Positions 3,087 through 50,820 of a DNA stretch of 52,482 bases are shown here, piece after piece. The stretch covers positions 1-52,482 of the forward strand of contig CAILTR010000092.1 of NCBI GenBank assembly GCA_903837175.1, read 5' to 3'. Made by a program: the position numbers and the translations under genes. This DNA comes from an uncultured bacterium (GTDB lineage: Bacteria > Patescibacteriota > Minisyncoccia > Moranbacterales > GWC2-37-73). Position 1 is the stretch's first letter. The number at the start of each line of letters is the position of its first letter. The notes below the pieces were generated by a model, which had not been told where the DNA came from, searched no databases, and saw nothing but the letters and a program-made list of their open reading frames with translations.

Positions 3087-3235
3087 GCATTTTTGCTATA
3101 TGATTTTCAATTTTCTTCAACATTGCAAATCAGACCATATGGGTATGATTGCAATGTTTTGGTTTTAAAAAGATATTGCAAAAAGTCGCATGCTTAGACT
3201 CTAGAATCTATTGCAATACTTTTTGTTTTAAAATT

Positions 3236-3559
3236 ATGGCAACAAAGCAAGCAACCGTCGATTATATTTTGGATCAGCTGGCCTCACTTGGCGAGGTGAG
3301 TGCGCGCAAAATGTTTGGAGAATACGCGCTCTACTTCGAGGGGAAAGTGGTGGGGCTGATTTGCAATGACACCCTTTTTGTTAAAATCACCGAGGCGGGC
3401 AAGCAATTTGTGGGCGGTCATTATCAAGAAGGCTATGCTTACAAAGGCGCCAAGGCTTCGATGGAAATTTCTGGCGACCTGCTGGAAGATCATCACTGGC
3501 TTTGCGAATTGATTTTGACAACCGCCAGTCAGTTGCCACTGCCGAAGAAGAAAAAATAA
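3236..3559 (+). CDS. TfoX/Sxy N-terminal domain protein (start moved to MATKQ)
   Basis: ARKMFGEYALY..GKVVGLICNDTLFVK motif. Confidence 0.85.
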   Translation: MATKQATVDYILDQLASLGEVSARKMFGEYALYFEGKVVGLICNDTLFVKITEAGKQFVGGHYQEGYAYKGAKASMEISGDLLEDHHWLCELILTTASQLPLPKKKK

Positions 3560-16000: not shown

Positions 16001-16146
16001 ATTTGATTATTTATAATTATTAACATTAGTATACACTAATTTCTTATTTTATAAAGTCTTTACATATTTATTAATAATCCCAAAACTGCATAATTCCAAT
16101 TCTTGCATAATATTGACACCATTCAAAGTTCTGAACATATCCACCA

Positions 16147-16291
16147 GCGGAGCCATGTACCGTCTGGTACATGGCGGATCCACCTTATTGTGAGTTCTGT
16201 CATGTATAGTTATGTACCGTCTGGTACATGGCGGAGCCGTATACCAGACGGTATACGGCGGAGCCACCTTATTGTGAGCTCCGTCTTGTAT
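16147..16291. repeat. Mini-array of 18-bp palindromes separated by ggcggagcc-like repeats
   Basis: atgtaccgtctggtacat x2, gtataccagacggtatac x1, duplicated accttattgtgag tail. Confidence 0.85.
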
Positions 16292-16342
16292 TCAAAAACA
16301 CACCTTGTTGGTGTGTTTTTGCTTTGTGTGTATAATTTAATT

Positions 16343-16624
16343 ATGGAAAAAACATATATTTTCTATTATGTGTATGTCTTACTCAGTAAAAATGATGGGA
16401 AATTTTATATTGGCTTCACTGAGGATCTAAAAAGAAGATTCGAGCAACATAATAAGGGGGAAAGTCCTGCAACTAAATGTCGAAGACCATTTGAATTAAT
16501 TTTTTACGAAGCCTATCGCAACAAATATGACGCACTGCGTCGAGAAAAATACTTCAAATCCACCAAGGGCAAAACTACTTTAAATACTATGCTAACGGAA
16601 TTCCTCGAAAATGACCCAAGTTAG
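16343..16624 (+). CDS. Small GIY-YIG nuclease (UPF0213-like; start MEKTY)
   Basis: YYVYVL..FYIGFT.DLKRR..QHN and ALRREKYFKS. Confidence 0.9.
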   Translation: MEKTYIFYYVYVLLSKNDGKFYIGFTEDLKRRFEQHNKGESPATKCRRPFELIFYEAYRNKYDALRREKYFKSTKGKTTLNTMLTEFLENDPS

Positions 16625-18302: not shown

Positions 18303-18460
18303 CCCGCTAGTGAGCTATTTTTTAAAGGCGCTTGCATAAATAGAAGCGTTTGGTATCATAAAGAACCGCCTTTTTTGGCGATTGCATTTTAACAACAAGC
18401 AGAAAAAAGAAAAATTTTTCTCTAATATTTTTTATCAACAACTAATTTGTGGGGAGAGTT

Positions 18461-19783
18461 ATGACACCTAAATCTTTGAATGTTTTGATTATTGGAAACG
18501 GTGCCCGTGAACATGCTATGGCATATTATGCGGAGCTGAGCCCGCGGGTGAAAAAAGTTTTTGTCGCACCAGGCAATGGCGGAACTGCCATGATGGATGG
18601 CAAGGTCAGCAACGTTGCCATTGCGGCAACTGATATAAACGCATTGCTTCAATTTGCCTTGGAAAGCAGTGTCGACTTGACCGTTATTGGTCCTGAGCAA
18701 CCACTTGAACTCGGGATTGTGGATTTATTCCGCAAAGCGGGAAAAAAAATCGTCGGACCTACGCAGGCGGCAGCCAAACTCGAAACCAACAAGGGTTACG
18801 CTAAGATGTTTATGGACGGTAATAGTATTCCAACGGCTTCTTTCGGGATTTTTTACCGTGCTGTTGATGCAATGGAGTATATTTCTGCACCAAATTTTAA
18901 ATTTCCAGCAGTTATTAAGGCAAGCGGTTTGTGCGCCGGAAAAGGGGTTTTTATTACTCTCAACAGGGAACAGGCATTTAAGGCAATCAAAGATCTTTTT
19001 AAGGACCGTATTTTTGGGGCTGCCGGAGACAAAGTTGTTATTGAGGAATTTTTGCTGGGTCAGGAGGCGAGCATCTTTGCATTGGTAGCCGAAGAGGGAG
19101 AGACCTACAAGCTCTTTGCAGCGGCTCAGGATCATAAGCGCATCGGCAATGGCGATACCGGTAAAAATACTGGCGGGATGGGAGCTTATGCACCCGCACC
19201 AGTTGTTACTCCTGAAGTTATGCGTAAGGTTGAGGAAAGAATCATTCAACCTACGCTTAAGGGCATGAGAGATGAGGGCAGCCCTTACACTGGTTTTCTG
19301 TATATCGGTCTGATGATCGACGAAAATGGAGATCCAAGTGTGGTTGAGTATAATGCACGCATGGGTGATCCAGAGACTCAGGTGGTACTTCCGCTACTTA
19401 AGAGTGACTTTGTTGAGGCTCTTTGGGCCAGTGTGGGTGGTACGCTTGCGGATGCGCCCTGGGAAATGAAGGAAAAGACATCAGTAATGGCTATCGTGAT
19501 TGCAGCCACAGGCTATCCGGATGAGTATGAAACTGGGAAAGCTGTTAAAGTCCCAGGCTGGGTTGAATCTTTTCCAGCTTCTTTCCTTTTCCATGCTGGA
19601 ACAAGATTTGAAGGCGGGAAAATTTTAACGGCAGGTGGGCGGGTTCTTTCTGTAATGGCCATAGGTACAAGTCTTGGCGATAGCATTTTTCGTGCGTATG
19701 AGCTTGCTGAAGTGATTAGCTTTGAAGGTGGCGGTTCATACTATCGTAAAGATATCGGCACCAAAGGCCTTGAAAGAAAGTAA
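18461..19783 (+). CDS. purD: Phosphoribosylamine-glycine ligase (start MTPKSL)
   Basis: GAREHA, APGNGGT, GPEQPL, QDHKRIG.GDTG.NTGGMGAY, GDPETQV, FHAGT, GGRVL. Confidence 0.96.
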   Translation: MTPKSLNVLIIGNGAREHAMAYYAELSPRVKKVFVAPGNGGTAMMDGKVSNVAIAATDINALLQFALESSVDLTVIGPEQPLELGIVDLFRKAGKKIVGPTQAAAKLETNKGYAKMFMDGNSIPTASFGIFYRAVDAMEYISAPNFKFPAVIKASGLCAGKGVFITLNREQAFKAIKDLFKDRIFGAAGDKVVIEEFLLGQEASIFALVAEEGETYKLFAAAQDHKRIGNGDTGKNTGGMGAYAPAPVVTPEVMRKVEERIIQPTLKGMRDEGSPYTGFLYIGLMIDENGDPSVVEYNARMGDPETQVVLPLLKSDFVEALWASVGGTLADAPWEMKEKTSVMAIVIAATGYPDEYETGKAVKVPGWVESFPASFLFHAGTRFEGGKILTAGGRVLSVMAIGTSLGDSIFRAYELAEVISFEGGGSYYRKDIGTKGLERK

Positions 19784-20491: not shown

Positions 20492-20857
20492 ATGCTTAAG
20501 AAAAAAACAAAGAAAAAAAGTACGGTTAAATTAGCGAAGAAAAATGAAAAGGTAGCTAAGCTAAATCTGAAAAAAATAATTTATGTTATTTTAACGATCT
20601 TTCTTGGAAAAATGCTGGCCTTTATTGTTTTCGAAATAATCTCATTGAACTTCGTTAGCGCGTTAGTTAGCGCTGACTTGCCAGTGGAATATAACCATAT
20701 ATTTGGTTTAGTTTATAGTCCGCTTTCGCCTTATCTTTTCTGGATTTTTATTGCCCTCGGTGCGGTTAGCGGTTTTTTTGTGGGACTGGCTTGGTGGCGG
20801 ATTATTTATATCGAGCATCGTCATTGGCGAAATAAAAAAGTTTCGCTTAAAAAATAG
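20492..20857 (+). CDS. Hypothetical membrane protein
   Basis: Two TM helices, WWRIIYIE C-terminus. Confidence 0.7.
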   Translation: MLKKKTKKKSTVKLAKKNEKVAKLNLKKIIYVILTIFLGKMLAFIVFEIISLNFVSALVSADLPVEYNHIFGLVYSPLSPYLFWIFIALGAVSGFFVGLAWWRIIYIEHRHWRNKKVSLKK

Positions 20858-20909
20858 CGTAGTTGCTTTTTTCTAAGTGGCTGTGGTATAGTTAAAAAAC
20901 AATTGAATA

Positions 20910-21031
20910 ATTTATCCAGAGTGATGGTAGAGCGCTGGCTCGACGACCCATCCGGCAACCGCCTTGAATGACTTTCAAGGAAAGGTGCCCCTTCCAGCTC
21001 GAACGCCTAGGGCTTTCGAGAAAAGATAAAT
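20910..21031 (+). ncRNA. SAM-I (S-box) riboswitch aptamer
   Basis: P1 tttatc/gataaa, atccagag, ggcaacc...aaggtgcc, ttcc, aaagat; upstream of metK; promoter TTGCTT-18-TATAGT at 20863-20892. Confidence 0.9.
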
Positions 21032-21038
21032 GGTCGAC

Positions 21039-21068: not shown

Positions 21069-21075
21069 TTTGTTT

Positions 21076-21365
21076 TGTCTTCGCGATCATTTCTGTACTC
21101 GGAAATGCGTGGCGATCCAGAGCAGTGCAATATAGTTTTTAGAAACTAAGTCAGAAATTTTTACTTCGCTTGTTTACTTTTTAGGACACGCTCTTGGTCG
21201 GGAACTATAACCAATCGCTCAGAATTCGCTGTCGCTCATAATGGTCTAAAAAGTAAACAAGCTTGTAAAAATTCAGAGATAATTTTTTAGTTAGAGACGC
21301 TAAATGGGCGTATAACTCAGCAACACCCTGGATTGCTTCTCCGCCCAGGGCGGATCGCAATGACA
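21076..21365. mobile_element. REP-like palindromic element interrupted by a degenerate 200-bp MITE-like copy (about 21125-21318)
   Basis: Outer arms tgtcttcgcgatc/gatcgcaatgaca and gcgatccag/ctggattgc; inner part is reverse-complement homolog of 28092-28289. Confidence 0.7.
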
Positions 21366-21453: not shown

Positions 21454-22497
21454 ATGTATAAACCAAAAACCTACACCGTCGAAAGCGTCACCTCGGGTCA
21501 TCCGGATAAAGTTTGCGATCAAATTTCGGATGCCATTTTGGATGAGTGTTTAAGGCAGGATCCAGCCAGTCGAGTAGCAGTTGAAACTTTCGGTGGCCAC
21601 GGCACTTTGCTAATCGGCGGGGAAGTGACGACGAAAGCGCAAGTTGATTTTGAAAAAATTGCTCGCAGGGTTTATCGAGAAATTGGTTACGACCAAGCCT
21701 TAGAAGTTTTAGTTAAAATCGTTCAGCAGTCACCAGAAATCGCCCAAGGCGTTGATACTGGTGGCGCGGGTGACCAAGGCATTATGTATGGCTACGCTAC
21801 TGACGAAACGAAAGAGTTTATGCCAGCGGCGGTCGTCAAGGTGCACGCCCTCGCAAAAAAGTTAGAGGAGCTTCGCAAAAACGACCCAGCTTTTGCTTGG
21901 CTGCGGCCGGATGGCAAAACGCAAATCAGCGTCCACAATGGCAAAATTTCTGCCGTCTTAGTTAGTTGCCAACACAGCGAGGAAGTCGGCAATGAGCAAA
22001 TTCGGAGGCAAATTATTGACGGCGTCATCAAGCCAATTATTGGAGACATTTCCGACATCGAAATTTTTATTAACCCGACTGGAAAATTTGCCCAAGGTGG
22101 TTTCGAAGCTGATACAGGGCTGACAGGGCGTAAAATCATGGTTGATACTTATTGCGGACTCGTTCCCCACGGCGGGGGAGCATTTTCTGGCAAGGATGCG
22201 ACCAAGGTTGACCGCAGTGCCGCCTATATGGCCCGCTACGTCGCCAAACAACTGGTTGCCAGAGGACTAGCTAAAGAATGTTTAGTTTCAGTAGCTTACG
22301 CGATTGGTAAAGCCGAACCGCTCATGGTTGAAGCTATCAATGAGAAAGGTGAGAGCTTGGCAGAAATTGTTAAAAAAGAATTTGATTTTCGCCCCCAAGC
22401 CATCATCAAAACCCTTGATCTACGCAAGCCAATTTTCCAAGCTACCGCCACCTATGGACATTTTGGCAAAGAAGGTTTGCCCTGGGAAAAAATCTAA
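21454..22497 (+). CDS. metK: S-adenosylmethionine synthetase
   Basis: ESVTSGHPDKVCDQISD, GAGDQG, GLTGRKI, GGGAFSGKD..KVDRS, YGHFG. Confidence 0.98.
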   Translation: MYKPKTYTVESVTSGHPDKVCDQISDAILDECLRQDPASRVAVETFGGHGTLLIGGEVTTKAQVDFEKIARRVYREIGYDQALEVLVKIVQQSPEIAQGVDTGGAGDQGIMYGYATDETKEFMPAAVVKVHALAKKLEELRKNDPAFAWLRPDGKTQISVHNGKISAVLVSCQHSEEVGNEQIRRQIIDGVIKPIIGDISDIEIFINPTGKFAQGGFEADTGLTGRKIMVDTYCGLVPHGGGAFSGKDATKVDRSAAYMARYVAKQLVARGLAKECLVSVAYAIGKAEPLMVEAINEKGESLAEIVKKEFDFRPQAIIKTLDLRKPIFQATATYGHFGKEGLPWEKI

Positions 22498-22519
22498 AAG
22501 CAAAAAAATATTTTCAAAC

Positions 22520-22553
22520 CAAGAAAAAGAGTTGACACCAGCTCTTTTTCTTG
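22520..22553 (+). terminator. Terminator after metK
   Basis: caagaaaaagagttg-acac-cagctctttttcttg. Confidence 0.7.
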
Positions 22554-22616
22554 CTTTTATGAGGGTAATCTCAATTTTGAGATGTCTGCTTTTTTAATAA
22601 TTTAAATGTTTCAGCC

Positions 22617-23183
22617 ATGCTTGACGTTTTCAAAATAACCGGCGCCCTGCTCGATGGCCATTTCAGGCTGACCTCCGGTCGCCACAGCAATGCCTACTTT
22701 CAGTGCGCAAAGGTACTGCAGCACCCGGAACACCTGACGGCGGTATGCAGCAAAATTGCAGAGCATTTTACCGGCAAGGGAGTCGAAACGGTCATCTCTC
22801 CGGCCATTGGCGGGATCGTTGTCGGAACAGAGGTTGGACGGCAGCTCGGTGTCAAAACCATCTTTGCTGAACGCAAGGAGGACGTCATGACCATCCGGCG
22901 CGGCTTCACGCTGGAACCCGATGAACGGGTACTGGTTATCGAGGACGTCATCACCACCGGTGGATCGGTAGCCGAAGTGATTGATCTCATCAAGAGCGCA
23001 GGAGCATCACTTGTCGGGGTCGGCTCGGTTGTTGACCGCAGCAACGGGCGCGTGAAGCTTGCTGACGACCATTTTTCAGTCCTTTCGATGGAGGTGATAA
23101 GCTATACTCCTGAAGAGTGCCCTCTCTGCAAGGAGGGATTGCCAATTGACACTCCCGGAAGCCGGGCAAATTCGCAGAGCTGA
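22617..23183 (+). CDS. pyrE: Orotate phosphoribosyltransferase (GC-rich, recently acquired)
   Basis: [28 protein letters not shown] motif, CPLC..PGSR. Confidence 0.95.
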
Positions 23184-23335
23184 TTTTTTTTGAGTTGTTT
23201 TTTGTAAGTCGTGGCGTCCTATGTGAACCACGGCTTTTTTTCTTGCATTTTTCTGAGGATTTGCTAAGGTAATAGCGAATTAAAGCAACGTCTTTTATCT
23301 CAATCAATGCTTTTTAAAAACAAGGATGGTTTATT

Positions 23336-24610
23336 ATGACAAGAACGTTTTTGTTTGAAGGAAAAACTAAAAAATTTTTTTCAGATGATGGTTATCCTGG
23401 TTTTGTGGTTATTGAAAATAAGGATGATATCACCAAAAATGATGATCCCACGAAAACCCAAATAATGCCTGGCAAGGGAAAACTTGCAACCGACACAACT
23501 TGCGCCGTGTTTCAATTGCTCAAGGATGCGGGAATACCTGTGGCTTATGAAAAGCGCTTAAGCGACACGGAATTTTTAGTACCCCTGGCTGAGGAGATGA
23601 TTTCTTTAGAGGTGATTGCGCGACGCTTTGCAGCTGGAAGTTTCTTAAAGCGTCATCCTGAACTCATCACGACTAGTGGGGTACCGCATCGTTTTCACCA
23701 GCTAAGGTTTGAATTATTTCTCAAAACTACCAACGGCAGAGTTAACAGAAAGGGACTTGAAGACTTTTACGTAAATGCAGATGATCCATTCATCGCGAAT
23801 CCTTATGAGGATGAATGGAATCTTTTCCATTCAAAGAAACCAAACTGGGAGGTTGATGCAAATTTGAAAGTGCCAATTCGCGCAAACACGATCTTGCCGA
23901 AGGGCGTTACGGTTGCTCAAATTGAAAAACTGACTCGTAAAATTTTCTTAGTGCTTGAGAGTGCTTGGGGTCAATTGGGATTTCATTTTGTCGACTTTAA
24001 ACTGGAGTTCTGTTTCCTTAAGGGTGAACTCATGCTTGCTGATGTTCTTGATGCAGATAGTTGGCGTCTGCGGAATGCTGATTGGACCGGTGAGTTTTCC
24101 AAACAGCTTTTCCGCGATGACCAGCCGATGGAAAAAATCGCAGCAAATTATCAGGCAGTAGCTCGTATGGTGCAATTATTCCGAATTCCAAAACAGGCTA
24201 TTGTGATTTGGCGAGAATCCACGAGGGATCAGTTACCTGATTTTCCTGTGGTGCCGGGGGTAGTTTTTGAGGATATGGTTTTCTCTGCTCAAAAATCTCC
24301 AAAGACATGCATGGAAAAGCTGGAGGGATTACTCACGAAATATCCAGAAGGCGGTGTAATCTTGGGAATAACTAATGGCCCTGGTTTAATTCTTTCTGCC
24401 CGGACAAGCTGGCCTTCTATCAATGTTGTGACAACTGTTGGAACTTTTCCTGATGCTGTTTGGAGTAGTTTATGTGTGCCAGGCGGTGCTCCTAGCATGA
24501 CCATGCTATCACCTGATAATGCTGTTCTCGCGGCATTGGACATGCTTAGTTTAAAAAATCCAGCGGTGTATGCTCTTCGCCAACTAGCCATTGAAAAGCT
24601 GGATGTGTGA
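23336..24610 (+). CDS. purC: PAICS-like fusion: SAICAR synthetase plus degenerate class II PurE domain
   Basis: EGKTK, LEVIARR..AGSF, VDFKLEF, LADV.DADSWRL; C-terminal SAQK, VWSSL..P.G, LSPDNA. Confidence 0.85.
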   Translation: MTRTFLFEGKTKKFFSDDGYPGFVVIENKDDITKNDDPTKTQIMPGKGKLATDTTCAVFQLLKDAGIPVAYEKRLSDTEFLVPLAEEMISLEVIARRFAAGSFLKRHPELITTSGVPHRFHQLRFELFLKTTNGRVNRKGLEDFYVNADDPFIANPYEDEWNLFHSKKPNWEVDANLKVPIRANTILPKGVTVAQIEKLTRKIFLVLESAWGQLGFHFVDFKLEFCFLKGELMLADVLDADSWRLRNADWTGEFSKQLFRDDQPMEKIAANYQAVARMVQLFRIPKQAIVIWRESTRDQLPDFPVVPGVVFEDMVFSAQKSPKTCMEKLEGLLTKYPEGGVILGITNGPGLILSARTSWPSINVVTTVGTFPDAVWSSLCVPGGAPSMTMLSPDNAVLAALDMLSLKNPAVYALRQLAIEKLDV

Positions 24611-36451: not shown

Positions 36452-38200
36452 ATGCAAATAACCAATAAACAACTGAGGGATTTCATCACCGATTCAGGTT
36501 TATTAGAACCGGAAGTGATTGAAGAAAATTTCCAGCAAGCAACCAAGCAGGTCAAAAAGTTAGGTGATTTATTGATGGAAAAAAAGTTAGTCAGTGAGAT
36601 TGATCTTAAGAAATTATATTCATATATTCTTGGGATTCCTTTTGTGAATTTAGAGAAAGAGGTTATCGCAAATGAAATTTTACATATTATTCCAGAACCG
36701 ATTGCGAAAAAATATGGTATTGTGGCCTTTGAAAAAAAAGGGAATGATTTAAAAGTGGCGATGAAAAATCCGGAGGATCTTCAGACGATAGATTTTATTA
36801 GAAAAAAGACCGGTCTGAAGATTATCCCGTGTCTTACGAGCGAAGATAATATTAAAATAGTTCTAAAGCAATATGAAAAAAGCTTAAAAGCTGAATTTGG
36901 TGACCTTATTAGCGATGACTCAGAAAAAATTTCTTCAGATAATTCTGATGATGATTTAGAGAAGATAGCGCAGGACCTTCCAATTGTGCGGATTGTAGAT
37001 ACACTTATTAAGCATGCAATATTGCAGTCTGCTAGTGACATTCACATTGAGCCAGATGAAAAAGAAGTTCGCGTTAGATATCGAATTGATGGAATTTTGC
37101 ATGACGCGATGACTCTGCCAAAGCAAGTCACGGGTGGCCTAATTGCTCGCCTGAAAGTGCTTTCCAGTTTAAAACTCGATGAGCATCGCTTGCCTCAAGA
37201 TGGACGTTTTAAAATTGAAAAAGATGGGTATAAAATTTCTTTTCGGGTTAGTATCTTACCAGTTTTTGAAGGCGAGAAAGTCGTAATGCGTTTACTAGAT
37301 GAAACTTCAAAAGGTTTGACTCTGGAAAAAATGGGTTTATATGGCGATGCCTTGGAGAAAGTTCATCAACATATCAAGCGTCCAAACGGCATGATTTTAG
37401 TAACTGGCCCAACGGGAAGCGGAAAAACTTCAACCTTATATACCGTGATGGATATTTTAAATACTTCAGAGGTTAATATTAGTACCGTTGAGGATCCAGT
37501 GGAGTATCGGATGCCGAGAGTAAATCAAACTCAAATTAATCCTAAAATAGGAATGACTTTTGCAGCCGCGCTGCGCAGTCTTTTGCGTCAAGATCCAGAC
37601 ATTATCATGGTCGGGGAAATTCGAGATGGCGAAACAATGCAGATTGCGATTGAAGCTGCGATGACTGGGCATCTAGTGCTTTCAACTTTGCATACTAATA
37701 GTGCGGCTGGCGCCTTGCCACGCCTTTTAGATATGGGCGCGGAAGCTTTTTTAGTAGCGTCCACCGTCAACATTGTAATCGCCCAACGCTTGGTGCGAAA
37801 ATTATGTAATGATTGCAAGGTCGAATATAATTTTGATCAGGCAACCATCAAAGATTTACAAGCTAGTTTTGAGCTGGCTGAGATTTTAGAAGTGATGAAA
37901 AAAACACCCCAATTAAAGGGGATTGTGAATGAAAAAAGTACTTGGAAAGATATTAAATTTTATAAAGCTAAAGGTTGTGAACAGTGCAATAATGAAGGGT
38001 ATCATGGCAGACAGGGGATTTTTGAGGTGCTAGTTATTGATGAAGAGATTGGCAAGCTAATAACTGCTAGTGCTTCAACGGATGAGATTGAACGAAAAGC
38101 TAAAGAGGAGGGTATGCATAAAATGTATGAAGATGGTTTCATTAAGGCTGCGATGGGCGTAACTTCGATCGAAGAAATAATTAGAGTAACTAAAGAGTAG
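36452..38200 (+). CDS. pilB: Type IV pilus assembly ATPase (PilB/GspE)
   Basis: ASDIHIEP, PQDGR, GPTGSGKT, EDPVE, LRQDPD, STLHTN, two CxxC. Confidence 0.95.
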   Translation: MQITNKQLRDFITDSGLLEPEVIEENFQQATKQVKKLGDLLMEKKLVSEIDLKKLYSYILGIPFVNLEKEVIANEILHIIPEPIAKKYGIVAFEKKGNDLKVAMKNPEDLQTIDFIRKKTGLKIIPCLTSEDNIKIVLKQYEKSLKAEFGDLISDDSEKISSDNSDDDLEKIAQDLPIVRIVDTLIKHAILQSASDIHIEPDEKEVRVRYRIDGILHDAMTLPKQVTGGLIARLKVLSSLKLDEHRLPQDGRFKIEKDGYKISFRVSILPVFEGEKVVMRLLDETSKGLTLEKMGLYGDALEKVHQHIKRPNGMILVTGPTGSGKTSTLYTVMDILNTSEVNISTVEDPVEYRMPRVNQTQINPKIGMTFAAALRSLLRQDPDIIMVGEIRDGETMQIAIEAAMTGHLVLSTLHTNSAAGALPRLLDMGAEAFLVASTVNIVIAQRLVRKLCNDCKVEYNFDQATIKDLQASFELAEILEVMKKTPQLKGIVNEKSTWKDIKFYKAKGCEQCNNEGYHGRQGIFEVLVIDEEIGKLITASASTDEIERKAKEEGMHKMYEDGFIKAAMGVTSIEEIIRVTKE

Positions 38201-38371
38201 CTATCTCTAAGGGTGGTACTATTGCGGGGAGTGTTTTGAAAGTAGTTTGTTTTTACTTAATGCACCCAAATTTTTAATTTTTAATTTATAATGAAATCTA
38301 AATTTTTTAATTTTAAAAATTTAAACATTGAAAAATTGATTTAAAATTTCAAATTTCAAATTATTTAAGTT

Positions 38372-39598
38372 ATGCCCAAATATATCTACACTGCTAAAAG
38401 TTATGATGGCCAAACCAAGGGTGGAGAGGTTATCGCTCAGAATGAAAAAGCCCTAGCTGCTCAACTACGGGGGGACGGTTTTTTAGTCACCTCGATAAAG
38501 CTAGTCAGTGAGCAGCAATTTGAAGGTATCGCCAAGGCTAAATTTTTAGATATATTTAATAGTGTTCCCTTGAAAGAAAAAATGGTCTTTGCCAGAAATT
38601 TAAGTGTGATGATTAGCTCAGGATTGACGGTCTCACGCGCCGTGAATAATTTAGCGCTTCAAGTTGAGCATAAGGGTTTCAGGAAAATTTTGGAAGATAT
38701 TTTTAATGAAATGCAAAGTGGGAAAACTCTAAGTGAAGGCTTTGCAAAATATCCTGGGGTTTTTGGCGATCTTTTTATTAATATGGTTAGGGTTGGGGAG
38801 GTGGCTGGTAATCTGGATGAGGTTTTAAAGATAGTTGCAGTTCAACTAGAGAAAGAACATGATCTAAAAGGAAAAGTGAAAGGCGCAATGATTTATCCAG
38901 CGGTTATTATTACGGTCATGCTCGTGATTGGAGTTCTGATGCTGACTTACGTGCTGCCCCAAATGCTGGGAGTATTTAAAGATATGGGCGCTGAGCTTCC
39001 ACCAATGACTAAATTTTTAATTTTGCTTAGTGATACAATGCGAAACAATGGCGTGACGGTAGCAATTGTTTTCATTGGCTTGGCTCTTTTTTTAAGATTT
39101 TTTTTACAACGAGAAGTTGGGAAAAAAGCTTTAAGTTATTTTACGGTGCATGTTCCAGTCTTTAGTCCTATCGTTAAGCAGGTTAATTGCGCTCGTTTTG
39201 CTAGAATTTTTAGTTCGCTTTTAAGAAGTGGAGTTAGTTCGATTGAAGCTTTAAAGATTATTTCTAACACGCTTTCAAATTATTATTACAAACAAGCCTT
39301 TCTGTCTGGGGCAGAAGAAATTCAAAAAGGAATTCCGCTGAGCGAGATTTTAGCCAAGCATCAAGATATTTTTCCACTATTAGTTTCTCAAATCGTGCAG
39401 GTGGGAGAAGAAACTGGAAAAACCGATGTTGTTTTAATTCAGCTAGCCGAATTCTACGAAGATGAGGTTGATCAAGTAACTAAAAATATGTCCTCTATCA
39501 TTGAGCCAATCCTGATGGTTGTGATTGGTGGTGCGGTTGGTTTTTTTGCAGTGGCTATGCTCCAGCCAATGTATAGCATGATGGGTAGTATTAAATAA
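38372..39598 (+). CDS. pilC: Type IV pilus platform protein (PilC/GspF)
   Basis: VGEVAGNL, AMIYP, VGEETG, IIEPIL. Confidence 0.95.
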   Translation: MPKYIYTAKSYDGQTKGGEVIAQNEKALAAQLRGDGFLVTSIKLVSEQQFEGIAKAKFLDIFNSVPLKEKMVFARNLSVMISSGLTVSRAVNNLALQVEHKGFRKILEDIFNEMQSGKTLSEGFAKYPGVFGDLFINMVRVGEVAGNLDEVLKIVAVQLEKEHDLKGKVKGAMIYPAVIITVMLVIGVLMLTYVLPQMLGVFKDMGAELPPMTKFLILLSDTMRNNGVTVAIVFIGLALFLRFFLQREVGKKALSYFTVHVPVFSPIVKQVNCARFARIFSSLLRSGVSSIEALKIISNTLSNYYYKQAFLSGAEEIQKGIPLSEILAKHQDIFPLLVSQIVQVGEETGKTDVVLIQLAEFYEDEVDQVTKNMSSIIEPILMVVIGGAVGFFAVAMLQPMYSMMGSIK

Positions 39599-39672
39599 GA
39601 AGCATGCAATCATATAATCATTTAAACATTTAAACACGGAAACATTTTGGAGTTTTGTGTTTTTAAGAGGCT

Positions 39673-41043
39673 ATGTCTCTGGAAAAAAAAATAAAAAAAA
39701 ATAAAAAGGCGGGTTTTTCTCTCTTGGAGGTCATGATTAGTATATTTATCATAACGATTGCCTTTTTGAGCTTCTATACGGTTTCTAACTTTGGCACAAG
39801 GTATATTATTGAAGCAAAAAATAGATTAGCGGCAACTGCTTTTGTAAATGAAAAAATGGAGATTATTCGTAATCTTGCTTACGATAAAGTTGGGACCCAA
39901 GGCAGTATTGATATTCCAGGTAATCTTCCGCAGGAGGAAAATGTGACTGCTAATGGCCGTACTTATCAAGTTTCAATAGCGGTTAGATATTTCGATGACC
40001 CTATGGATGGAACTGTAAGCTCGACGCCGGCCGATCTTATTCCAAACGATTATAAAATCGTCGAAGTTAATGTTTCCTGGGTAGATAGCAGTGGTCAGTT
40101 AAAAAGCGTTTCTTCCTCATCCCGCTTTGTGCCTCCAGGGCTGGAGACGAGCGCTGGTGGTTCGCCACTTTCAATTAATGTTATTGATGGAGAAACCTTA
40201 CTGCCAATTTCACAAGCGGTTGTTAATATTAAAAACACCATTGTTTCACCTCAAATCAACGATACGATTAAGACTGATGGTGAAGGGCATCTCTTACTTC
40301 CTTCAGCCAGAATTTCAAGTGGCGATAAAGTTACAATAACTAAAAGCAGGTATGAAACAATCGAAACTATGGATTCTTCCGCCACCTTTACTCCGATTTA
40401 TGGTCATATAAATGTGATTGCGGGTTTCTTGAATACCTATAATTATATTCAAAATCGACTGGCCAAGCTAACAGTCAAAGCCGTTGATTATCAAGATAAG
40501 CCAGTTGGAAACATTGGTTTTTCGATTGGTGGCGGAAAAATCATTGGGCATGATAATTTAGGTGGTAGTATTTTTAGCATGGCGGATACTAGTGGAACAA
40601 CTGATTCAATCGAGGGTAAAAAGGAATATGCGGATATCAGTGCAGGTAGTTACCTAATTTCGATGAGTCCAAATGCGCAGTATCAGTTAATTGATTATGA
40701 TCCTTCGGCCACCCCTTATTTTCTTTCCCCAGGTAGCGACTCAACTTACAAATTTCGTTTAGCTGATAAAGATATCAATGCTTTGTTTTTAGAAGTAAAC
40801 AATACTGAAAGTCCGAGTTCTCCAATAGCTGGCGCCAAGGTAACCTTGGTTGCCAATGGGGTGGATGTTTTTACAGATAAATTAAGTTCTTTGCGAGGAG
40901 TGGTTTTTTATCCCGACGGAGCTGAACTTTTACAAGTAGGCACATATACTTTAAAAATTGAAGCCGATGGCTATGATCCTTATGAGGGTCCGGTCCAAAT
41001 TGATAAATTAACTCATGAGATAGTTCAGTTGACGAAAAACTAA
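39673..41043 (+). CDS. Minor pilin (PilV-like) with C-terminal beta-sandwich repeats
   Basis: Class III signal KKAG/FSLLEV. Confidence 0.8.
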   Translation: MSLEKKIKKNKKAGFSLLEVMISIFIITIAFLSFYTVSNFGTRYIIEAKNRLAATAFVNEKMEIIRNLAYDKVGTQGSIDIPGNLPQEENVTANGRTYQVSIAVRYFDDPMDGTVSSTPADLIPNDYKIVEVNVSWVDSSGQLKSVSSSSRFVPPGLETSAGGSPLSINVIDGETLLPISQAVVNIKNTIVSPQINDTIKTDGEGHLLLPSARISSGDKVTITKSRYETIETMDSSATFTPIYGHINVIAGFLNTYNYIQNRLAKLTVKAVDYQDKPVGNIGFSIGGGKIIGHDNLGGSIFSMADTSGTTDSIEGKKEYADISAGSYLISMSPNAQYQLIDYDPSATPYFLSPGSDSTYKFRLADKDINALFLEVNNTESPSSPIAGAKVTLVANGVDVFTDKLSSLRGVVFYPDGAELLQVGTYTLKIEADGYDPYEGPVQIDKLTHEIVQLTKN

Positions 41044-41044
41044 A

Positions 41045-41683
41045 ATGAAAAATAAAAAACTTTTTTTTAGCCAAGGCATGACCCTTGTGGAGACGCTTAT
41101 TGCGATTGCGCTCTTCCTTTTGGCTACCCAGGCTACGGTAACAGTCTTTGCTAGAACCATAAAAACCAAAGCTTATACTTTGGAGATGGGTAGATCTTCT
41201 TTGATTTTATCTCGGAGTATGGGTGACTTAGCTCAATATATTCGTAGGGCCAAACAATCGAGTAATGGTGCTTATCCAATAGTTTCGGCGGATGATAATG
41301 ATTTGGTGCTCTATTCCGATTATAACAAGGATGATATTGTAGAACGCTTGCATGTTTATTTAGCTAATAAAAAAATTTATTTAGGAGTGCGAATCCCTTC
41401 AACTTCTTTCCCTTTTTCTTATGCTTCGGGTGATGGAGAGACTTTTCAATTGGCTGATCATATTATAAATTCAACGGCTGATCCCATGTTTGCTTATTAT
41501 AACGGCGATTACCCTCAAGACACGGTTAATAATCCAGTTAATACTCCCGCAGATGTCTCCGAGATCCGCTTAGTAAGAATGTTTTTAAAGATAAATATTG
41601 ATGAAAATAGAGCTCCAGATAACATCCAGCAGGAGACTTTTGTTGAAATAAGGAATTTAAATGACTATGATAGAATCCACTAA
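41045..41683 (+). CDS. Minor pilin (PilW-like)
   Basis: SQG/MTLVETL. Confidence 0.8.
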   Translation: MKNKKLFFSQGMTLVETLIAIALFLLATQATVTVFARTIKTKAYTLEMGRSSLILSRSMGDLAQYIRRAKQSSNGAYPIVSADDNDLVLYSDYNKDDIVERLHVYLANKKIYLGVRIPSTSFPFSYASGDGETFQLADHIINSTADPMFAYYNGDYPQDTVNNPVNTPADVSEIRLVRMFLKINIDENRAPDNIQQETFVEIRNLNDYDRIH

Positions 41684-41686
41684 ATT

Positions 41687-43240
41687 ATGATTAAATTAAA
41701 TTTCCAACAGCATAAAAAAGGCGGCGCGCTGGTGGCTGTATTAGTTATGGTTGTTATCGTGACTATTATTTTAAGTTCGCTCCTAGTTTATATTACTTCC
41801 CAGCTGAAATTTAGTGAGGACCGAGTTGAGCGGGAGCGCGCCTTTCAAATCGCCGAGGCTGGAGCGTATTATTATCGTTGGTACTTGGCACATGCTATTG
41901 AAGGAAAAACTGCTGCTCAAATTGAGAATTTTTGGCAAAATGGGAATCCTATCGGCATAGACCCTGATCATAAATATACTGCAGAATTTAAGGATCCAGA
42001 TGGGACAGCAGTCGGTCAGTACCAACTAGAGGTTACAGCTCCTGTGGCAGGTTCAACTATTGTTATTGTTAAATCAACTGGCTGGACGTATCGTAATGAT
42101 TCAATTAAGAGAATTGTCCAGGTTAGATTTCGCCGTCCCTCCTGGAGTGAGTTTGTTTTCTTATCTAATAGTTTTATGAATTTTGGCGACCAGGCCACAG
42201 TGTATGGGAAAGTTCATTCTAATGATGGCATCCGCTTTGATGGCAAAGCGTATAATGTGGTTAGCTCTGGCAAGTCACGTTTTGATGATAGCACCTATGG
42301 CGGCAACCGGATGGAATTTGGAGTTCATACCACGACAAATCCGGCCGATGGCGCGGCGCCTGCCTATCCTTGGGCTATTGGAACAGTTCCGTTGCGACCA
42401 GCCGTTTTTGTGGGTGGTCGGCAGTTTCCCGTCCCGGAAGTTAGCTTTACGGGAGTAATGACTGATTTAGGCAATATGAAAACCCAAGCTCAAAATGAGG
42501 GAAAATATTTTGATAACACGGGTTTTGGCAGAAGAATTAATTTAAAAAGTGATGGGACTTTTGATGTTTGTACGGTTAATTCCGCCAACACTAATACGCA
42601 CGCCATAACTAAATACAATGGGATTATCACTGGTGCAACGGGAGCCTATAGTGGTACGAACGGAATTGCTTGTAGTGCTAGTACTTGCTGCACGGGTGCG
42701 GCTTGCCCGTACGTTCAACCCAGTAAATCCGCTAGTGGAAGATGTATTAGCTTAAGTAACTATCCATTAGTTAGCGATAAAGTTATCTTTGTGGAAAACA
42801 ATATTTGGATTGAAGGTACAGTTAATAATAAGCGATTGACAATCGTGGCGGCTAACTTATCGGGAGGCGTAAATAGAGCTGATATTTACGTGGGCATCAG
42901 TAATCAAAATTTACTTTTCAGCGATTACAGTTGCGCTAATACTTTGGGCCTTGTCGCTCAACAGGATATACGCGTGCTGAATGATTGTCCGGATAACTTT
43001 ACTATTGATGCGGCGCTCTTGGCTCAAGAGGGAACAGTCGGAATCGTCAATGGCATGGGTGGAAAATACTCACTGACTTTTAACGGTGCCATCGCTTCTT
43101 ATCTGCAGCCTTATTTCCAGAGTGGTAATAGTGGTTTTTCCGACCGAACTTATAATTTTAATAACAACTTACTTTATTGTCCCCCTGCTTATTTCCCAAC
43201 TGGGACGGAATATTTAATCGACTTATGGGATGAGTTATGA
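41687..43240 (+). CDS. PilX-like minor pilin/adhesin with Cys-rich insert
   Basis: KKG/GALVAVL lacking E5; AFQIAEAG; GKVHSN. Confidence 0.78.
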   Translation: MIKLNFQQHKKGGALVAVLVMVVIVTIILSSLLVYITSQLKFSEDRVERERAFQIAEAGAYYYRWYLAHAIEGKTAAQIENFWQNGNPIGIDPDHKYTAEFKDPDGTAVGQYQLEVTAPVAGSTIVIVKSTGWTYRNDSIKRIVQVRFRRPSWSEFVFLSNSFMNFGDQATVYGKVHSNDGIRFDGKAYNVVSSGKSRFDDSTYGGNRMEFGVHTTTNPADGAAPAYPWAIGTVPLRPAVFVGGRQFPVPEVSFTGVMTDLGNMKTQAQNEGKYFDNTGFGRRINLKSDGTFDVCTVNSANTNTHAITKYNGIITGATGAYSGTNGIACSASTCCTGAACPYVQPSKSASGRCISLSNYPLVSDKVIFVENNIWIEGTVNNKRLTIVAANLSGGVNRADIYVGISNQNLLFSDYSCANTLGLVAQQDIRVLNDCPDNFTIDAALLAQEGTVGIVNGMGGKYSLTFNGAIASYLQPYFQSGNSGFSDRTYNFNNNLLYCPPAYFPTGTEYLIDLWDEL

Positions 43241-43366
43241 AATATTGAAAAAATAGTGTAAAATTAAAAAAGGTAAAAAGCTTAAAGACAAAAAATAAAA
43301 TAAAATAAAATAAAGCAGTGAGTAATATCTAACATTTTTTGTTTTGTGTTATGTGTTCCATGCTTC

Positions 43367-44461
43367 ATGATTAAAATGACTTTTTTAAATAAAAAAATTT
43401 TTAATAGTAGTGCAAGCATTTTTGGCTTGGATTTAAGTGATCTTTCAATCAAGTTGGTTAAACTTGAAGAAAATGGCAAAGAAGATGAATTAGTTAGTTA
43501 TGGAACAGTGCAACTGCCTTTTGGCGCAATTAGTGATGGCGAAATAAAAGAAAAGTCGCAAGTAATTGAGGCTATAAATAAACTCGTTAAAATTTCAGGA
43601 CCTAAAAAAGTAAAAACAAAAAAGGTTATCTGCTCAATTCCAGAGACCAAGGCTTTCCTAAGAATTATTAGCATTCCCAAGATGAGTGAAGAAGAAATTA
43701 GCGAAGCTGTAAAATGGGAAATCGAAGCTAATATCCCATTATCATTAGAACAGGTTTATTACGACTGGCAGATTGTGACCGAATCGCTGAAGATAGAGAA
43801 GAATAAAATAAATCTTTTGGTGGTAGCTGTTTCAAGAATAATTATTGATGAAATTATCTCGGTTATTGAGGAAGCAGGTCTTGATGTTGTTGGGTTAGAG
43901 ATAGAATCAATTTCTCAGGCACGCAGTCTACTTAGCCAAGAAGATTGCAATAAGACAGTTTTAATTGTTGACATCGGGGATCGGCGAACAAGTTTTTCAA
44001 TCGCCAAGGAAGGCGTCTTATGTTTTACGTCAAGCATTCCACTTAGTGGGCAATCTTTAACGGATACTATTGCTAGGGGAATGAGTATTTCCTCTAAGGA
44101 AGCGGAAGAAATAAAATTTAATTATGGGATTGGTAGCGATTTTAAAAATGATGCGTTATTTCAATTAACAAAGCCAATTTTAGAGAATTTTTCTCAAGAA
44201 ATAGAAAAGTCAGCTGATTTTTATTTATCAGGACTTGGCTACTCGAAGAGTATTGACAAGATAATTGTTTGCGGTGGCGGAGCTAATACGAAGGGAATCG
44301 TTCCATATCTATCAAAAAAGCTGGGGCGAGAGATTGAGCTTGGTAATCCTTGGTCTAACGTTAATTTTGGAAAAAAATTGCCACTCATTGAAAAAGGTCA
44401 GGCCGTACAATATTCAACCGCAATAGGTTTAGCTTTAAGGGGAATTCAATATGAAGATTAA
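43367..44461 (+). CDS. pilM: Type IV pilus assembly protein PilM (start 43367 or 43376)
   Basis: FGLDLSD.SIK, VDIG, CGGGA, NPW, AIGLALR. Confidence 0.92.
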   Translation: MIKMTFLNKKIFNSSASIFGLDLSDLSIKLVKLEENGKEDELVSYGTVQLPFGAISDGEIKEKSQVIEAINKLVKISGPKKVKTKKVICSIPETKAFLRIISIPKMSEEEISEAVKWEIEANIPLSLEQVYYDWQIVTESLKIEKNKINLLVVAVSRIIIDEIISVIEEAGLDVVGLEIESISQARSLLSQEDCNKTVLIVDIGDRRTSFSIAKEGVLCFTSSIPLSGQSLTDTIARGMSISSKEAEEIKFNYGIGSDFKNDALFQLTKPILENFSQEIEKSADFYLSGLGYSKSIDKIIVCGGGANTKGIVPYLSKKLGREIELGNPWSNVNFGKKLPLIEKGQAVQYSTAIGLALRGIQYED

Positions 44462-50360: not shown

Positions 50361-50433
50361 TGCGCTCGGCAGGACTCGAACCTGCAACCCCTTGATCCGA
50401 AGTCAAGTGCTCTATCCTTTGAGCTACGAACGC
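50361..50433 (-). tRNA. tRNA-Arg(TCG)
   Basis: Anticodon arm cttga-ctTCGga-tcaag; T-loop gttcgag. Confidence 0.95.
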
Positions 50434-50469
50434 AGTTTAGTTGATGTGAAATTTTCTAAAACAAAACTG

Positions 50470-50542
50470 GGCGGGCACAGGGAATTGAACCCTGATTCTC
50501 GGTACCACAAACCGATGTCTTAACCGTTAGACGATGCTCGCC
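50470..50542 (-). tRNA. tRNA-His(GTG) with encoded G-1
   Basis: Anticodon arm tcggt-ttGTGgt-accga; G-1:C73. Confidence 0.93.
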
Positions 50543-50650
50543 ATATAGAAAATGTAAAATGTAAATCTCAAAATGAAAAATTAAAAAAGTCGTGAACGAA
50601 GTGAACACCAATATTTTAAATTTTGATTTTTAAATTTTAAACTATCTCCG

Positions 50651-50722
50651 TACCCCCACCAGGAATCGAACCTAGATCTTCAGCTTAGAAGGCTATTGCT
50701 CTATCCGTTGAGCTATGGGGGC
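50651..50722 (-). tRNA. tRNA-Arg(TCT)
   Basis: Loop ctTCTaa; acceptor gccccca/tgggggt. Confidence 0.93.
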
Positions 50723-50744
50723 AATTTCCTCTCCTTGCGAAAGG

Positions 50745-50820
50745 TGGTGGGTTATGCAGGATTCGAACCTGCGACCATTGGCTTAAGAGGCCACTGCTCT
50801 ACCAACTGAGCTAATAACCC
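50745..50820 (-). tRNA. tRNA-Lys(CTT), CCA encoded
   Basis: Loop ctCTTaa; acceptor gggttat/ataaccc. Confidence 0.95.

Follow-up and report, generated by a model that had tools for sequence, protein, structure and literature searches.

The orotate phosphoribosyltransferase gene pyrE of an uncultured lake-water bacterium was analyzed in its genomic context, and our results indicate that the gene is of Chlorobium origin and probably replaced a native pyrE-type gene in place (xenologous gene displacement in situ), rather than being inserted at a neutral site. The gene is an open reading frame (ORF) of 188 amino acids (aa) running from ATG to TGA (22617..23183, + strand), and it lies in a stretch of 52,482 nucleotides (nt), hereafter the window, which is contig CAILTR010000092.1 of assembly GCA_903837175.1. 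The host is represented by a metagenome-assembled genome of Moranbacteria, a lineage of the Patescibacteria, or candidate phyla radiation (CPR), from lake water. This genome (G000) has 1,372,049 bp on 120 contigs, with 38.2% G+C, 95.9% completeness and 3.9% contamination. The adenosylhomocysteinase (SAHH) encoded in the window has 90%-identity cluster mates named Candidatus Moranbacteria or Moraniibacteriota, and the genome sizes of the relatives in the collection are 0.7-1.4 Mb. For comparison, 60 Moranbacterales genomes were searched beside G000, and the genus set consisted of seven genomes. A preliminary description, made from the letters alone, had read the ORF as a very recent, nearly ORF-precise capture of a GC-rich pyrE, probably from Chlorobiaceae.

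The identity and the composition of the gene were determined. The ORF was present as claimed, its three quoted peptides were all found in the translation, and the hand counts of 33/60 G+C in 22621-22680 and 36/60 in 22801-22860 were exact. The translation matched positions 3-187 of the 187-position NCBIfam model TIGR01367 (pyrE_Therm) with 202.5 bits (cut-off 150.25), and the type I phosphoribosyltransferase (PRTase) domain PF00156 of Pfam with an E value of 5.2e-12. The loop that binds phosphoribosyl pyrophosphate (PRPP) could be read in the translation. All 85 columns that are invariant across 84 orthologues of the Chlorobiaceae clade were retained, and the differences unique to the window protein fall in two near-invariant columns (G89D and A179T) and at positions 7 and 123. 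The product is thus predicted to be an intact orotate phosphoribosyltransferase. The ORF has 55.9% G+C, and 63.0% at third codon positions (GC3). When the genome was scanned with 567-bp sliding windows (n=13,097, mean G+C 38.3%, sd 4.3%), just two were richer in G+C than pyrE; both overlap on contig C15 inside an 820-aa ORF with a GC3 of 0.30, indicating that amino-acid composition drives their high G+C. In GC3, pyrE ranked first (0.633) of the 1116 non-overlapping ORFs with 100 aa or more (mean 0.358, sd 0.066). The flanks are AT-rich up to the ORF, with 27.7% G+C in 22498-22609 and 32.9% in 23184-23335.

The similarity searches pointed to one bacterial group. Organism names were carried by 25 of the best 120 of 7939 protein matches, and all 25 were Chlorobium, Chlorobiaceae, Chlorobaculum or Chlorobi, with 74-94% identity. 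In a set of contigs with one genome per species, the 55 best loci were titled Chlorobiaceae, Chlorobiales, Chlorobi or Chlorobiota (73-94% aa identity), and the next 25 loci after the Chlorobi group (Ignavibacteria, Kryptonia and others) reached 58-64%. No pyrE homologue above 42% identity was found in the 60 Moranbacterales relatives. The closest metagenome locus, L103, lies on a 203,776-bp contig and encodes a protein 95% identical to the window PyrE. It was also the closest match in blastn, with 90.4% nt identity over 22610-23170, followed by four loci at 87.7%.

The protein tree had 142 rows, the window and 141 unique sequences from 163 extracted, and placed the window inside a 56-row clade (36 Chlorobi-labelled and 19 metagenome rows) with a support of 95 in the Shimodaira-Hasegawa-like approximate likelihood ratio test (SH-aLRT). 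The DNA tree was built from 86 rows, the window and 85 unique genes whose proteins are at least 70% identical. Here the window was sister to L103 (88/69), within successive clades whose supports were 85/94, 97/84 and 99/94. The terminal branches were 0.064 for the window and 0.076 for L103, and the distance of 0.14 between them falls well short of the crown depth of the Chlorobiaceae. The approximately unbiased (AU) tests speak against a firm placement, as trees with the window outside the 11-, 17-, 58-, 59- and 65-row Chlorobium clades were not rejected (p-AU 0.56, 0.49, 0.40, 0.27 and 0.13); the groups were picked after tree inspection and the alignment has just 564 columns. What speaks for the nesting is therefore the short distance to L103 together with the branch supports, which favour a position of the window pyrE within freshwater Chlorobium. 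The Chlorobiaceae donor named in the preliminary description was thus borne out by both BLAST and phylogeny, with no non-Chlorobi name among the organism-named best matches.

Compared with the Chlorobiaceae PyrE, the window protein has the same length as those annotated with 188 aa, and the gene has the same G+C and GC3. Many Chlorobiaceae proteins, however, are annotated in a 193-aa form from an upstream ATG that the window gene does not have. The window copy further differs in its diverged C-terminal tail, in residing without Chlorobium neighbours in a 38% G+C CPR genome, and in having no detected pyrF partner there. A third party may have supplied both lineages, or Chlorobium may have received pyrE from CPR bacteria. 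The AU tests are too weak to fix the position within Chlorobiaceae, and the true donor is unsampled. Nevertheless, this gene type spans genomes labelled Chlorobium, Chlorobaculum and Pelodictyon, with Ignavibacteria next at ~62%; the G+C of the window pyrE fits the Chlorobium orthologues (mean 56.2%, n=85) and not the 38% host; and G000 is the sole carrier among 61 Moranbacterales genomes. We consider another donor or the reverse direction very improbable.

The boundaries of the foreign DNA were then defined by the two homologies. The Chlorobium-derived segment (22610..23183, + strand) comprises 7 nt 5' of the ATG and the ORF. Its blastn homology to Chlorobiaceae loci covers 22610-23170, where strong homology stops, and the last 13 nt through the TGA still align with some Chlorobiaceae 3' ends. 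On the left, host homology to a spacer of the relative G005 extends to ~22605, leaving a junction of 4 nt (22606..22609, + strand) that belongs to neither homology. On the right, host DNA runs from 23184-23188 onward with 92-95% identity to G001, the closest relative. The capture was therefore nearly ORF-precise, as had been proposed, with 7 nt of foreign DNA upstream of the ATG and none beyond the stop.

Logan contigs were placed on 21800-24000; they came from four lake-water runs of a single study, among them X1, X2 and X4. In X1, six exact contigs overlap as a chain over 21800-24000 (depths 38.8, 40.9, 42.1, 44.1, 59 and 33.2); the one at 22549-22739 spans the left junction and the one at 23102-24000, part of 5053 nt, spans the right junction. 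In X2, a 1178-nt contig crosses the right junction, and the left junction was uncovered among the matches listed. The exact PyrE protein was found on seven contigs, and its longest-contig figure (58,056) was the same as for metK, SAHH and the purC-like gene. Since X1 is possibly the sample from which the window itself came, the Logan contigs provide an independent assembler but not independent data.

A mis-joining of Chlorobium reads into a Moranbacteria contig during assembly or binning was weighed against these data. The same runs are rich in Chlorobium pyrE alleles (depth 66-229, with 65.6 in X1), and the de Bruijn graphs branch at 22610 and 22739; Logan contigs show these alleles meeting the window precisely at 22610, with upstream sequence of the Chlorobium type before that point. 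However, exact contigs cross both junctions at a depth like that of the flanks and unlike that of Chlorobium. Moreover, pyrE is placed mid-contig in a 52-kb contig, its exact protein recurs on the seven contigs, and the gene is ~8% off the co-occurring Chlorobium alleles over 130 nt and at least 9.6% nt off all database genes. We regard such an artefact as extremely improbable. Since exact contigs traverse both junctions at flank-like depth, the pyrE locus is not chimeric, and both junctions are real.

The AT-rich 5' flank, the spacer and leader 3' of metK (22498..22605, + strand), is host and not donor DNA. Positions 22507-22605 are 89% identical to the metK-pyrF spacer of G005 (G005:C5:22934-23034), and 22505-22569 have 94% identity to the spacer that follows metK in G003 (G003:C90:793-857). 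It contains a 15-pair hairpin with a T-rich tail (22520..22553, + strand), which is terminator-like for metK, conserved in G003 and G005, and G006-like at 83%. The 3' flank (23184..23335, + strand) holds a T-run, a terminator-like hairpin and a motif before the next gene, and is homologous to G001 from 23188. The stem of the 3' hairpin (~23209-23215 / 23229-23235, with a 13-nt loop and then T7) was read by eye and was uncalled by the scan; T-run, hairpin and T7 are also found in G001. The motif follows at 23242-23273, and 23242-23271 of it is 97% identical to G006 just 3' of its native pyrE-like gene. This 30-nt motif occurs once in G000.

A donor-derived leader at 22521-22609, suggested by a MAFFT alignment, was rejected, as the leader is host DNA shared with G003 and G005. 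When aligned with 49 Chlorobiaceae upstream regions, it did not outscore control sequences that were shuffled or matched in composition. The best local score was 24, where the null gave a max-across-loci mean of 20.5 and a highest value of 28; in global alignment, the median was that of the null and the maximum had p ~0.03-0.04.

The gene orders of the relatives were compared with that of the window, in which metK (21454..22497, + strand; TIGR01034 446.5 bits; 94% nt identity to G001 and 81% to G005) precedes pyrE and a SAICAR (phosphoribosylaminoimidazole-succinocarboxamide) synthase-like gene (23336..24610, + strand; PF01259, E 4.7e-33; present in G001) follows it. Both neighbours are host genes. 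In G006, the orthologue of window 20492-20857, which encodes a membrane protein of 117 aa (56% identity), is followed by the hairpin and leader (83% identical to 22517-22560), a 209-aa pyrE-like gene, a terminator, the 30-nt motif and a purC-type gene. In G005, the order is metK, leader, pyrF (TIGR02127, 215 bits) and a 227-aa pyrE-like gene. In G003, metK and the hairpin precede an unrelated 214-aa gene. Thus, homologues of pyrE occupy the same slot in G006 and G005, and no native copy is left in G000, where a single pyrE-type match was found. The preliminary description had implied a landing in a neutral spacer; this part probably does not hold, as the slot is occupied by pyrE-type genes in G005 and G006 behind the same leader. 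What the comparison adds is that the 5' flank is the host metK-pyr spacer and that G006 keeps a native pyrE-like gene in the same slot. Because the same host leader and terminator or motif surround pyrE-type genes in relatives, xenologous displacement in situ is the probable origin of the present arrangement.

Several observations weigh against this interpretation. The pyrE-like proteins of G005 and G006 fall below the TIGR01367 cut-off (104 and 63 bits), though TIGR01367 is their best match, and they are mutually just 29% identical; the G006 type is 56% identical to a gene of G056, a relative from another family. The downstream purC-like protein of G006 (342 aa) has no BLASTP similarity to that of the window, and the right-hand synteny therefore rests on the 30-nt motif and the terminator layout. 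Furthermore, the closest relative G001 has neither hairpin, leader nor gene, with ~22520 joined to ~23184-23188. An X4 contig shows the same short form (skipping 907, with 250 letters between).

These short forms would be expected if a 663-bp unit of leader and pyrE had been added at a neutral intergenic site to a G001-like metK-terminator-purC-like ancestor, with nothing displaced. G001 is 94-95% identical at the nt level around the pyrE slot and 98.3% around purD. However, the 5' 85-100 nt of the supposed unit are Moranbacteria spacer common to G003 and G005 and, more loosely, G006. Since hairpin and leader are common to G003, G005 and G000, the G001 state is read as a deletion, which parsimony also favours; its right end coincides with the position of the pyrE stop codon. 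The value of G001 as a clean pre-insertion "empty site" is weakened for the same reason. In addition, a contig of X1 and X2 matches the window perfectly over 22470-22578, after which its next 30 letters are those of the G005 leader; this suggests that a close relative carrying a non-Chlorobium allele co-occurs. Together with the pyrE-type genes of G005 and G006 behind the same leader, these results make a simple gain rather unlikely, and displacement in situ is preferred.

Other features of this region were recorded. The modules bracketing pyrE at 22541-22570 and 23233-23273 have a common layout (hairpin 3' arm, T-run, CTTGC..TTTT, TGAGG, GGTAAT) and share an 18-nt direct repeat of 89% identity, which could anchor cassette exchange among relatives. 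The gene behind the 30-nt motif encodes the 424-aa SAICAR-synthase-like protein (23336-24610) in G000 and G001 and a 342-aa PurC of another type (L085 154-1185) in G006, so the purC slot also looks displaced. The C-terminal part of the 23336-24610 product is weakly similar to aminoimidazole ribonucleotide (AIR) carboxylase (PF00731, 25.7 bits, below the cut-off of 30). Upstream, an S-adenosylmethionine (SAM) riboswitch (20909..21032, + strand; RF00162, 50.3 bits versus a gathering score of 44.4) lies 5' of metK. The gap between them contains a ~150-bp repeat (21131-21298) that occurs in many copies, ~75-93% identical, in all seven genus genomes and at 10 or more further places in G000, with a second short repeat just upstream (21073-21130).

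No sign of a mobile element was found at the locus. Apart from low-complexity T/A runs and the host hairpin, there was no repeat pair bracketing the foreign segment that could represent insertion sequence (IS) ends or a target-site duplication, and no transposase or integrase domain was detected in 44 window ORFs scanned with Pfam. No viral relative of pyrE was found in IMG/VR, where a single-protein scan detects close relatives only, and no plasmid match was found. None of the marks of mobile-element cargo (terminal repeats, an attC-like site, a transposase or integrase, a virus or plasmid copy) was thus observed, in keeping with the earlier statement that donor neighbours and IS ends are lacking around pyrE.

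A possible course of events is as follows. Freshwater Chlorobium DNA would have been taken up by the Moranbacteria lineage, possibly by natural transformation through a type IV pilus and ComEC. The pilus locus that had been reported near pyrE is present (36452..44458, + strand), with PilB, PilC, pilins, PilX and PilM (PF00437, PF00482, PF07963, PF14341, PF11104), and ComEC is encoded elsewhere in the genome (C115:25382-26185). The Chlorobium pyrE (22610-23183) would then have come to occupy the recipient's pre-existing pyrE slot, between the metK-proximal hairpin and leader and the host terminator/promoter module ahead of the purC-type gene. The ORF-precise ends may have arisen by illegitimate recombination, with selection then favouring a functional ORF in the slot, or by deletions that trimmed the donor flanks. 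The pyrE ORF begins 119 nt past the metK stop, and its transcription may depend on read-through from metK, behind its SAM riboswitch, and/or on a possible promoter inside the hairpin (TTGACA-17 nt-TTTTAT, read by eye and absent from the scan calls); the same arrangement was seen by eye in the G006 leader. The transcript would end at the host terminator. In line with the proposed uptake route, an ORF at 3149-3559 has a TfoX_N domain, of a competence-regulator family; its GC3 of 0.50 is unusually high for G000.

The age of the transfer was estimated from composition and from the changes on the window branch. L103 has 56.0% G+C and 63.3% GC3, matching the window pyrE, and the mean of 85 orthologues is 56.2% and 63.1%. 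The 58 differences between the window and L103 were polarised with 14 outgroup genes, which left 14 without a direction. On the window branch, 22 changes were counted (11 GC>AT, 8 AT>GC and 3 neutral; 16 synonymous and 6 non-synonymous), with 8 of the 22 in the last 31 nt of pyrE, and the L103 branch had 9 GC>AT and 11 AT>GC. By our own estimate, a ratio of ~3:1 in favour of GC>AT would be expected for a branch that lay entirely within a 36%-GC3 genome; the binomial p for 11 of 19 is 0.077, which is suggestive, not decisive, evidence against that. These data indicate that the transfer is young relative to amelioration, with neither amelioration nor AT-biased drift visible. The claim of a very recent capture, however, stands only in this relative sense. 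Counting against it, no donor above 90.4% nt identity was found in GTDB species genomes, JGI metagenomes or the co-occurring Chlorobium alleles, the last of which differ from the window pyrE at ~10 of 130 positions (~92% identical).

A second uptake from the same group had been proposed for purD (18449..19783, + strand; TIGR00877, 482.9 bits). The window PurD is 61-65% identical to those of Chlorobiaceae genomes and at most 45% identical to those of other Moranbacterales apart from G001, whose PurD is 100% identical (975.8 versus 978.5 bits for the window itself). One further protein, P0122, is 72% identical. In a quick 125-row tree with five distant Moranbacterales PurDs as the root, the window and P0122 formed a long-branch pair (stem 0.35). 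The enclosing clades of 24 and 68 rows (both SH-aLRT 98) include rows named Chlorobium and are separate from the C. limicola and Chlorobaculum groups. The GC3 of purD is 0.41, which is no compositional outlier, indicating that the gene has been ameliorated. On this evidence, purD appears to be an older acquisition from the same donor genus, with long-branch effects possible. The proposal therefore held as to the Chlorobium derivation, but the gene is old, long-branched and ameliorated. An ORF with a GIY-YIG nuclease domain (16103-16621) lies ~1.8 kb 5' of purD.

The genome was scanned for further Chlorobium-derived genes. By composition, no other ORF came near pyrE; the other GC-rich windows were large low-GC3 surface-protein ORFs and one non-coding patch. 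By similarity, tblastn of the 1116 G000 ORFs against one Chlorobiaceae genome (G063, 2.51 Mb) gave matches for 399 ORFs, with pyrE at the top (92%), followed by a 102-aa cytidylyltransferase-like ORF on C79 (79%), a short-chain dehydrogenase/reductase (SDR) on C6 (77.5%) and SAHH (72%), and with a DapD-like ORF at 65% and purD at 64%. The remaining high scorers are presumably universally conserved proteins, being EF-Tu-, ATP-synthase- and RecA-like by sequence reading. The block at C6:1023-4611 (L360), encoding a sugar transferase, an acyl-AMP ligase-like protein and the SDR, is collinear with the Chlorobiaceae genome at 65%, 59% and 77.5% aa identity. It was rejected as Chlorobium-derived, since the named best matches of the SDR mix Massilia, Chlorobaculum, Burkholderiaceae, Limnobacter and Pseudomonas, pointing to a promiscuous cassette. 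Two membrane proteins on C107 and C49 (70% and 64%) were rejected likewise, as their clusters are mainly Moraniibacteriota, Pseudomonadota and Bacteroidota. Thus, two Chlorobium-derived genes, pyrE and purD, are supported in G000, and the search for more, based on one Chlorobium genome, yielded no further supported case.

Some unrelated features were noted during these scans. A patch of 54-59% G+C at C66:9400-10100 (L200), beside a tRNA and with a doubtful 106-aa ORF, matched no Rfam family at the gathering threshold and is possibly an undescribed structured RNA. Two paralogous small ORFs at C7:3085-3441 and C63:2004-2399 share a ..FPEGR.DVCV.. stretch; with a GC3 of 0.59, the C7 copy ranks third in the genome. 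Four tRNA genes are located on the minus strand at 50361-50820, close to the contig end.

The pathway around PyrE was also examined. Nucleotide metabolism in G000 is patchy, with purD, the purC-like gene, pyrE and CTP synthase present. The orotidine monophosphate (OMP) decarboxylase gene pyrF (PF00215) was not found in G000 and was found in one of the seven genus genomes (G005), and tblastn with the G005 PyrF gave no match in G000. Dihydroorotate dehydrogenase (DHODH; PF01180) was not found in G000 and was found in two of the seven (G004 and G005). Neither the N-domain of PRPP synthase (PF13793; prs) nor uracil phosphoribosyltransferase (UPRTase; PF14681; upp) was found in G000. There are three PRTase-domain genes in total, with no second pyrE-type gene among the matches in G000. 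As far as a 95.9% complete genome allows, the window PyrE would therefore be an orphan enzyme whose pathway partners were not found. A pyrE-type gene is absent from four of the seven genus genomes, and G006 keeps its pyrE-like gene without pyrF, which suggests a pyrF-independent use of a pyrE-type enzyme. Because pyrF and the other partners are missing from G000, G006 likewise has no pyrF, and four of the seven genomes have no pyrE-type gene, we speculate that PyrE is either used independently of pyrF, in salvage or in the reverse reaction, or is dispensable and transient.

The latter would make pyrE a functionless passenger on its way to loss, an idea that is compatible with the transfer and rivals only its being a selected replacement. 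Besides the missing partners and the pyrE-less relatives, it is favoured by the ATG of pyrE without a Shine-Dalgarno sequence (GAGGAGG precedes the start in G006), by the changes G89D and A179T at near-invariant columns, and by the clustering of branch changes at the 3' end. However, the frame is intact with all invariant columns kept, 16 of the 22 polarised changes are synonymous, exactly the ORF is kept within host signals, and G006 too keeps such a gene without pyrF. On balance we consider a passenger unlikely. An orotate phosphoribosyltransferase without OMP decarboxylase, PRPP synthase and uracil phosphoribosyltransferase raises a biochemical question on orphan enzymes in CPR cells.

The concept of xenologous gene displacement in situ ("mosaic operons") is said to come from Omelchenko and colleagues (Genome Biology 2003). 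The pyrE locus resembles it in that a foreign orthologue sits in a slot, with its regulatory surroundings, that is filled in relatives by their own homologue, and in that no native copy is left. It differs in the ultra-small CPR recipient with a donor from another phylum, in a replacement precise to 7 nt upstream and 0 nt downstream, and in a slot that holds three mutually distant pyrE types in one genus, each at most 35% identical to the others. The locus thus represents an unusually clean natural ORF-for-ORF replacement across phyla in a minimal genome, and alternative pyr-slot alleles apparently co-exist in the same water samples.

Physical associations of CPR cells with phototrophic sulfur bacteria have precedents. 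Vampirococcus and Absconditicoccus, both Absconditabacteria, are reportedly epibionts or predators of purple sulfur bacteria (Gammaproteobacteria) in stratified waters. The likeness of ultra-small CPR cells living on phototrophic sulfur bacteria makes a similar idea plausible here, but those cases join Absconditabacteria to Gammaproteobacteria, and the present one would join Moranbacteria to Chlorobium. In a literature search of titles and abstracts, no link was found between Moranbacteria and Chlorobium, nor between Patescibacteria and green sulfur bacteria.

Gene transfer into Patescibacteria has been surveyed before. In one such study, individual Patescibacteria genes received from Bacteroidota, Omnitrophota and other phyla are described, with co-abundance used as a hint of association; exchange is mostly intra-phylum, divergences are 3.9-34.5% (mean 23.7%), and recent cross-phylum transfers are rare (PMC12455944, mSystems 2025). 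Its main text has no mention of orotate, pyrE, purine, pyrimidine or Moranbacteria. Compared with the transfers seen there, the window case differs in that the donor genus is resolved and that a second, older gene points to the same donor. Both cross-phylum horizontal transfer into Patescibacteria and in-situ displacement are thus already known, and the pyrE case adds a new instance.

The pyrE transfer hints at a tie between this Moranbacteria lineage and Chlorobium. Chlorobium co-occurs in the same runs; this is expected for any anoxic lake-water organism and is therefore no proof of a host link. Within one genus, three unrelated pyrE types and two unrelated purC types are found in the same slots. 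Tentatively, and with a chance that we put as low, the lineage may live in lasting physical association with freshwater Chlorobium, as an epibiont or predator, and would have drawn purD from it long ago and pyrE recently, with the metK-pyr-pur region serving as a cassette-exchange site where terminator and promoter modules are kept and ORFs are swapped. Most CPR hosts are unidentified, and Moranbacteria have no identified partner in the literature searched. For this lineage, gene uptake from one donor genus at two different times would provide a concrete and testable host hypothesis.

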